The position numbers and the translations under genes were made by a program. From the IMG/VR virus record IMGVR_UViG_2541047875_000010, positions 1-33,904 of that record: DNA of 33,904 nucleotides; one strand, 5' to 3'. Shown piece by piece: positions 13,297 to 14,268 of this stretch (its first letter is position 1; each line of letters begins with the position of its first letter). Below the pieces are notes generated by a model. The model saw only the letters and a program-made list of their open reading frames with translations. It searched no databases and was not told the origin of the DNA. Origin of the DNA: a virus. Taxonomy: Duplodnaviria; Heunggongvirae; Uroviricota; Caudoviricetes.

Positions 13297-13551
13297 TGGA
13301 GGATAGAAAAATGAAATAGCTAAATAAAAAGAATGCACTGGATGCCATATTTGGGCAACGTGACGACAGCGTTAATCTGGTCGGGCTCCCATGGCGACGT
13401 AGTGAGGGAGAGGAAGCGTAAAGCATCACTGAGTTACGGTTGGCACCCGGTTTAACGCGTAAGTAGCCTGATAAAGAGATAGTGCGCCGCGGCACTCCCT
13501 GCGCAACGGTTAACAGGCCCAGACATTTTCAGGTTTTTATTCTGAACCATG

Positions 13552-13582
13552 AAAAAAAGCACGGGTACTTTTAATACCCGTG
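13552..13582 (-). terminator. minus-strand rho-independent terminator A
   Basis: On the minus strand CACGGGTA-ttaaaag-TACCCGTG (8-bp stem) followed by CTTTTTTT. Confidence 0.5.
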
Positions 13583-13616
13583 GGACAGGGTCCTTTATAG
13601 CAAGTTGTGAGAGGGT

Positions 13617-13648
13617 AAAAAAAGCGCGGCTGTCGGATTAAAGCCGCG
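13617..13648 (-). terminator. minus-strand rho-independent terminator B
   Basis: On the minus strand GCGGCT-ttaatccgac-AGCCGC followed by GCTTTTTTT; in tandem with terminator A. Confidence 0.5.
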
Positions 13649-14268
13649 GGACAACGTCTATGAAGAATAATAAGCCTCTGTCTCCTGAAGGAGACATGTT
13701 CATACTAACAAACATTAAAAATGGTTTACATTTCAAAATTAATATGAATTTCTGATAACTCTTATTATTCTTCTGTGCCACGTTCGGTGCACTCAAAAAA
13801 CACGGAGATGAGTGTACGGGATGGTCAGTGTGATGTCCTCTGTAAGCTGGTGGTTGTTGTATTCCCGTTGCGGAAAGAAATACACAAGTTGAGTATCAGA
13901 GAATCACATTACCTGCGAAAAATTTTAATTATCTCACAATTCTGTCAGTTTATTATTGCGGGTCAGGCGGCTGATTTGTTAGATAAATCCTGCATGGTGA
14001 ATCCCCCTGTGCGGCGGGGCGACTGGTGGACGGTATCATCTCTGATTATCGAAACGAGAATGACGCGGGTTCGGTGGCACCAGGCCGAATCCACCGGGAG
14101 GCACCCGGCACCATGCGTTTCTCCTTATCCTTTGTCCCCCTCCCCGGAGGGGCTGTGCTCTCTGATAAGTATGGCAAATGTGCCGGTGGAGACATGAAGA
14201 ATAGTATTTCTTCATGTCTTCCGGAGATATTGCAGTATTAATTCAGTAACGTTATTATCCTGTGCCGC

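Follow-up and report, generated by a model that had tools for sequence, protein, structure and literature searches.

A predicted minus-strand small-RNA gene between antiterminator Q and the lysis genes of lambdoid Escherichia coli prophages

The window, a 33,904-nucleotide stretch of viral DNA (IMG/VR record IMGVR_UViG_2541047875_000010), is a lambdoid prophage of Escherichia coli, and its segment 13192–14268 is 100% identical in eight complete RefSeq genomes. This segment lies between antiterminator gene Q and a tRNA gene, after which the PGAP annotation of an identical genome places the holin, lysozyme, and spanin genes (Table 1). The Q-to-tRNA interval carries no PGAP annotation in that genome, and no feature is listed under it in any of the eight genomes with a 100% match. 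Its open reading frames have no credible family match in Pfam, NCBIfam, or PHROGs, with the sole exception of PHROG 35554, which falls over an sRNA gene of the STnc100 family. The initial annotation was therefore right to describe about 1 kb without convincing protein genes. A DUF3927 remnant at 13848–13958 was considered and rejected, as it consists of a nucleotide match only, without any tblastn support. Terminator-like sites are frequent in the region, with eight found compared with 2.3 ± 1.6 in shuffled sequences. The stretch 13213–13288 is 84% identical to DNA upstream of essD in the DLP12 prophage of K-12; DLP12 was rejected as a carrier of the sRNA described here, the shared part being the PR′/tR′ piece only. 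In the same PGAP annotation, an iss/bor-type serum-survival lipoprotein gene (16637–16921, minus strand) stands directly past the lysis genes, a frameshifted phage N-6-adenine methyltransferase is found nearby, and PerC-family and LexA-family regulator genes lie upstream of Q.

Table 1. Features in and around the Q-to-tRNA interval, in window coordinates
Feature	Position	Strand	Basis or remark
Antiterminator Q	12808–13191		PGAP and PHROG 79
tR′-like terminator, 3′ of Q	13266–13295	+	Terminator scan; start of late leader
Shared late-leader module with mini-ORF	13297–13548	+	Ends in decayed plus-strand terminator facing T2
T2 terminator	13552–13582	−	10 pairs, then U7; terminator scan
Predicted long sRNA form, ~144 nt	13552–13697	−	Predicted start to T2
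T1 terminator	13617–13648	−	7-bp GC-rich stem, 10-nt loop, U7
Predicted short sRNA form, ~79 nt	13617–13697	−	Predicted start to U-tract of T1
21-codon ORF MNMSPSGDRGLLFFIDVVPRL	13638–13703	−	Rejected as gene
U-rich single-stranded stretch AGAGGCUUAUUAUUCUUCAUAGACGUUGUCC	13649–13679	−	Candidate seed (base-pairing) region
31-codon ORF, antisense to sRNA and promoter	13660–13755	+	32 codons in relatives: MKNNKYWPPSGDMFILLSFRSGLNPQINLNFR
5′ hairpin GUCUCC-UUCA-GGAGAC, 6 bp	13680–13695	−	Sequence
Predicted σ70 promoter of sRNA	13702–13730	−	−35 TGTAAA 13730–13725, 17-nt spacer, TG-extended −10 TAGTAT 13707–13702
STnc100/PasD-family prophage sRNA (EcOnc27 in O157 Sakai)	13963–14165	+	Rfam RF02076
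Long hairpin in 5′ leader of tRNA gene, 13-bp perfect core 14189–14220	14183–14224	+	No U-tract on either strand
tRNA, anticodon CAT, tRNA-Ile per PGAP	14269–14344	+	ARAGORN, Rfam 70.3 bits, PGAP
Decayed tRNA-like sequence	14353–14411	+	Rfam tRNA 22.7 bits, gathering 29

On the minus strand of the interval, a promoter, a 5′ hairpin, a U-rich stretch, and two successive terminators, T1 and T2, are, as read from the sequence, the parts of one predicted gene. The gene appears to be unnamed and to join the known class of prophage sRNAs rather than to represent a new kind of system. Both terminators stand where the initial annotation had placed them, each with its run of seven uridines. In T1 the stem is formed by CGCGGCT (13625–13631) and AGCCGCG (13642–13648), and A7 at 13617–13623 reads as U7 on the minus strand; T2 reads CACGGGTATTAAAAGTACCCGTG on that strand (13582–13560), followed by U7 (13558–13552). 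The perfect 6-bp hairpin reported just upstream of them is also present, but its description as GNRA-type does not hold because its loop reads UUCA in the RNA, with UGAA as the plus-strand sequence. None of the minimum-energy, centroid, or consensus folds pairs residues 13649–13679, and the sequence CUUAU..UUCUUCA(U/C)GGACUUUGUCC is nearly invariant across 32 distinct variants. The general build of an Hfq-type sRNA is thus found here, with CUUAUUAUUCUUCAU unpaired in the folds upstream of T1 and its U7 tract. As to the tetraloop of the 5′ hairpin (13684–13691), it is TTCA on the RNA strand in the window and NGRA-like (TGAA, GGAA, AGAA, or TGGA) in all relatives; TTCA and the TGAA form are reverse complements, as though the palindrome had been flipped.

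Promoter prediction on the minus strand around 13700–13800 yields a candidate σ70 promoter that is kept in all 117 copies of the element. Its −35 hexamer is TTTAAA in 115 copies and TGTAAA in two, the spacer is 17 nt, the −10 hexamer is TAGTAT or TAATAT, and the distance to the 5′ hairpin is fixed. The predicted promoter agrees with the consensus at 7–8 of 12 positions, which is under the cut-off of a simple consensus scan, and the window's copy combines the weaker −35 (TGTAAA) with a TG-extended −10. We infer from the −10 position only that the sRNA starts at about 13696 (13697–13695). Some 80–100 nt upstream of this start is a short hairpin (13775–13792) whose pairing seems, by inspection rather than formal count, to be kept in relatives (arms GCGCC/GGCGC, GCGTC/GACGC, and GCGCT/AGCGC); it may be either a site for a regulator or a structural element of the late leader.

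The folding energy of the minus-strand RNA and the pattern of substitutions among its relatives both point to a selected structure. Compared with shuffled sequences, fold z scores are −2.7 for 92 nt and −3.6 for 150 nt, and all three stems (5′ hairpin, T1, and T2) show compensatory changes. The 117 copies represent 68 distinct variants, and the 5′ hairpin and T1 were scored on 32 distinct RNA bodies, in which 94.2% of cells are paired versus 39–56% when the 3′ partners are slid. One pair of the 5′ hairpin is UA in 16 bodies and CG in 13, and another is UG in 15 and UA in 14. The search pattern used for most relatives fixed most of T1 and its loop, and conservation of T1 is therefore partly circular, whereas T2 and the 5′ hairpin are unaffected; the two T1 pairs that the pattern left free show CG 24/UA 8 and UA 10/CG 8/UG 1. 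For T2, scored on 15 distinct variants that the search pattern left unconstrained, pairing holds in 97.5% of cells versus 17–50% when slid, with pair counts of AU 8/GC 7, GC 10/AU 4/GU 1, and UG 8/CG 5/UA 1. A plus-strand transcript would have A-C mismatches in place of the U-G wobbles, and the structures therefore belong to the minus-strand RNA. A covariance model built from the 32 distinct relatives matches 13701–13607 (minus strand) with 103 bits and an E value of 1.6e-25, a match that is partly circular because the window's copy is among the 32 rows. The earlier view that the region is more than random sequence is upheld by the excess of terminator-like sites, the z scores, and the covarying stems. 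Taken together, the sequence data make it very probable that this is a real minus-strand structured-RNA gene. The minus-strand RNA of ~100–200 nt proposed to run against late transcription is likewise supported, as a prediction, by the conserved promoter, the covariation, the strand-specific wobbles, and a fixed position before holin.

The element is both conserved and structured in relatives, as the initial annotation had expected of a functional locus. In a distant BLAST search, 411 of 5,426 complete E. coli genomes gave a match to 13534–13851 at 72–77% identity. The exact T1 motif occurs in 114 IMG/VR viral contigs and, among GTDB species representatives, only in Escherichia ruysiae. Carriers among the matches listed include E. 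coli W and human, animal, and environmental isolates, and no O157:H7 or E2348/69 record is among the matches listed. Among phage GenBank records, only vB_EcoS-683R6 and SerU-LTIIb carry the family, neither with an annotation for it. Two records labelled "DH5alpha" (NZ_CP026085.1 and NZ_CM135829.1, 4.83 Mb) carry an sRNA locus 100% identical to that of E. coli W; DLP12, the sole K-12 prophage checked, does not have the locus, and the labels look doubtful.

The relatives are antisense to the late operon. The holin gene lies on the opposite strand, upstream of the predicted sRNA start, in 83 of 84 informative loci (those with enough flanking DNA), and the distance from the holin start to the predicted sRNA start is 188–217 nt in 61 loci or 760–1207 nt in 22. 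In all five annotated examples the element is on the opposite strand between Q or tRNA genes and holin. In the window, sRNA and holin are ~1 kb apart because STnc100 and the tRNA stand in between. T2 is present in ~103 of 117 copies; in the other ~14 another module replaces it, and a plus-strand terminator (GCTCGC-TTCG-GCGAGC plus a T-run) directly abuts T1. Twin terminators are therefore frequent without being universal. In many relatives, including many E. coli W-type copies, the U-tract past T1 is weak (CUACUUUUC), and the 79-nt form may therefore be variant-specific. T2 is probably the main stop in the E. coli W-type copies on account of this weak tract.

Two plus-strand features of the interval went unnoticed in the initial annotation. 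One is the late-leader module, which is found at 92–96% identity in many E. coli genomes 3′ of other Q types and which, in a relative designated L002, ends in a strong terminator (CCTCGGCATTTGCCGAGG plus a T-run). As a structured RNA this module was rejected (fold z = 0.11). The other is the STnc100/PasD-family sRNA gene, found by the suggested Rfam search, which gave nothing for the minus-strand element. This gene, separate from the minus-strand sRNA and on the other strand, scores 129.4 bits against a gathering threshold of 47 and covers model positions 1–206 of 206. Stx phages and EPEC prophages also have the family between Q and the lysis genes. The window's copy retains the 3′ stem CCCCUC-CCCG-GAGGGG, but where the consensus has the U-run UUUUUAU it has GUGCUCU (CUGUGCUCUC), and there may therefore be read-through or co-transcription into the tRNA-Ile gene. 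PHROG 35554, of unknown function, matches the translation of STnc100 DNA (14039–14119, in the frame of ORF 13775–14197, E value 2.5e-07) and was probably built from ORFs miscalled over the sRNA gene. Between STnc100 and the tRNA, the long hairpin has a fold z of −4.0, and 14182–14275 is ~82% identical to DNA immediately 5′ of tRNA-Ile genes in prophages of other strains. The decayed tRNA-like sequence is probably a relic of an ileZ-argN-argO type cluster as found in Stx phages.

Comparison of the minus-strand element with known RNAs indicates similarity of position and build rather than of sequence. Rfam 15 gave no match at gathering or at E ≤ 10; the sole Rfam matches on the element, to ncS025 and the L20 leader, are at chance level (16–17 bits). 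A full-text search for its sequence motifs returned unrelated papers only, and supplementary tables beyond the reach of that search may still list the RNA. There is no detectable similarity to PasA, PasB, PasC, AsxR, or AgvB. Homology to PasA, PasB, PasC, and AsxR was rejected on the basis of BLAST, a permutation test, and the covariance model with filters off, and the model misses PasA and PasC in this setting also. When local alignments were compared with shuffles, p was 0.44 for PasA and 0.05 for PasC, whereas the alignment of PasA with PasC is clearly significant in the same test. A likeness to PasB noticed on inspection (UCUUCAU...UGUCCCCGC) is not significant (p = 0.18).

PasA and PasC lie on the antisense strand before holin (Pearl Mizrahi et al. 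2021, PMC8550237), and PasA has a major 3′ end at 85 nt and a minor one at 236 nt (PMC8550237 Table S6). In the PasA sequence, two terminator-like hairpins are visible, and its start is 214 nt before the holin start, compared with 188–217 nt in relatives of the present sRNA. Like PasA and PasC (EcOnc51/52), which are Hfq-dependent and known from EPEC E2348/69 and EHEC, the present sRNA opposes late transcription just before holin and has a 3′ stem-loop followed by a U-run; the antisense location immediately upstream of the holin/lysozyme operon is seen in 83 of 84 relatives. The short form (~79 nt) is close in size to PasA, and both RNAs have two successive 3′ ends, predicted at ~79 and ~144 nt for the present sRNA. 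Unlike PasA and PasC, to which it has no detectable similarity in sequence or structure, the window's sRNA is separated from holin by the STnc100-tRNA block.

In EHEC prophages, convergent sRNA genes occupy a moron site downstream of PR′ (Tree et al. 2014, PMC4104026), and the sRNAs of this site include the antisense-oriented anti-sRNAs AsxR and AgvB (PMC4104026). The present gene occupies such a site, between Q/tR′ and holin on the minus strand, and like AsxR and AgvB (RF02703 and RF02702) it has its own predicted promoter and terminator and is antisense, downstream of PR′. Its terminators face a plus-strand unit, as do those of AsxR, which in Sakai Sp5 faces STnc100. The AsxR and AgvB models give no match in 13150–14720 at E ≤ 10, and the same library scores Sakai AsxR at 88 bits. 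The predicted ~79 or ~144 nt also exceed the 51–60 nt of AsxR and AgvB. The neighbor relationship differs as well: STnc100 is on the promoter side of the present sRNA, whereas in Sakai Sp5 the STnc100 family member (207.7 bits) is convergent with AsxR, their ends 2 nt apart on opposite strands. Short phage antisense RNAs are also transcribed from within operons and overlap the start region of a plus-strand frame, as in the case of P22 Sar and λ OOP. The present sRNA resembles these in overlapping the start of a plus-strand frame, here a putative ORF, and is not known to be related to them in sequence.

We consider it reasonably likely, mode of action included, that the locus is an autonomously transcribed moron sRNA gene whose product is an Hfq-type base-pairing regulator. 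In this proposal, drawn from sequence and from analogy, the cassette would bring its own promoter and terminators to the minus strand of the late-operon leader. The promoter (TGTAAA-17-TGnTAGTAT) would fire in the lysogen, and the RNA would begin at the base of a 5′ hairpin that protects it, bear the conserved U-rich stretch, and end at T1 or, by read-through, at T2. The twin terminators would block minus-strand transcription from entering Q. The RNA would then pair with host or prophage RNAs, as do PasA/PasC and AsxR/AgvB from the same slot. Within the window, no trans target is convincing beyond the antisense locus itself; if the RNA acts in trans, conserved complements of its UUAUUAUUCUUCAU near start codons would fit. 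A cis effect on late and lysis transcripts is also possible because the RNA is fully complementary to the late leader.

Such a cis effect might be the main function. Minus-strand transcription would collide with polymerase leaking past tR′, and the RNA would pair with the late leader and cover the start of the 32-codon ORF, with the result that accidental expression of lysis genes in lysogens is reduced. The perfect complementarity is consistent with this reading, as are the finding that the best-conserved unpaired stretch lies antisense to where the plus-strand ORF starts (ATG or GTG) and the coincidence that the unrelated PasA sits at the same distance before holin as the sRNA in the 61 closer loci. 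However, the ~1 kb of STnc100 and tRNA and a further plus-strand terminator (14630–14644 plus a T-run) lie between sRNA and holin in the window, and the plus-strand ORF itself is doubtful. Its ribosome-binding site, read from the sequence, is weak, its variable sites number 15/10/15 by codon position with no third-position bias, and frameshifted copies are common, although it is intact in ~4/5 of copies (start ATG or GTG) and dN/dS among these is ~0.3. It is probably not coding. Moreover, Q-modified polymerase ignores terminators, and any cis effect would therefore be confined to leak in lysogens. On balance we think a mainly cis-acting function rather unlikely. The intact plus-strand ORF, with its low dN/dS and with an antisense RNA over its start as in some type I systems, could alternatively be the product of a toxin-antitoxin-like or leader-peptide locus, and the 21-codon minus-strand ORF, which exists as the initial annotation described it (ATG 13703–13701, TAA 13640–13638 within the T1 loop), could be another. 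We judge this highly improbable. The 21-codon ORF has no in-frame ATG in 27 of 117 copies, and in 43 others it is reduced to a 7-codon remnant; its first ATG overlaps the predicted −10 hexamer and is therefore probably upstream of the transcript start. The 21-codon peptide is not hydrophobic, and neither peptide has a hydrophobic helix of membrane-spanning length, such that no conserved small hydrophobic toxin ORF lies under the antisense RNA. Neither ORF has a family match in Pfam, NCBIfam, or PHROGs, and one 32-codon open frame among six is not unusual in closely related sequences. As for the mini-ORF suggested as a leader peptide, ATG AAA TAG is present (13311–13319) at a spacing of 8 nt, not 9, from GGAGG (13298–13302), and L002, a close relative, keeps the mini-ORF but has GACGG in place of GGAGG. 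Because neither the 21-codon ORF nor the GGAGG is conserved, the earlier ideas of a small toxin-like locus and of a leader peptide fail.

Finally, the hairpins might belong to the plus-strand late transcript or to the DNA, as processing, pausing, or protein-binding sites, with no minus-strand gene at all. The region is crossed by late transcription, and the plus strand can fold as well (z = −2.9) because the stems are near-palindromes. Against this, the U-G wobbles that would be mismatched on the plus strand occur in 15 of 32 variants of the 5′ hairpin and in eight of 15 of T2, the runs of seven T stand on the minus-strand side only of both terminator stems, and the minus strand has a conserved promoter-like element, its distance constant. 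This is the least probable of the readings, and we give it very little credence.

A moron sRNA gene, the reading we prefer, accounts for the 1-kb gap left blank by PGAP. In EHEC and EPEC, the moron-site sRNAs between Q and the lysis genes (AsxR, AgvB, and Pas) are known for rewiring host regulation. The present RNA would add a sequence-unrelated family, carried by roughly 4–8% of complete E. coli genomes and spread beyond the original pathovars, with E. coli W and human, animal, and environmental isolates among the carriers listed. Because the present sRNA and PasA share the pre-holin position and the two-terminator build, the question arises whether the slot has a function in lysis control. 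The slot ~200 nt before holin may conceivably be a conserved antisense "safety catch" against leak of lysis genes in lysogens, a suggestion that we regard as speculative and more doubtful than not. Unrelated cassettes, such as the present sRNA and PasA, would each provide a constitutive promoter against the late operon, and the RNA of each would pair with the late leader; the present sRNA would in doing so cover the start of the 32-codon ORF. If true, lysis control would have a layer so far undescribed, beyond another trans-acting sRNA.

The long hairpin in the leader of the tRNA gene shows two further correspondences with the sRNA. On the minus strand it includes TATTCTTCATG, which exactly matches 11 nt of the family's consensus single-stranded stretch, and on the plus strand 13 pairs are possible with the window's sRNA.
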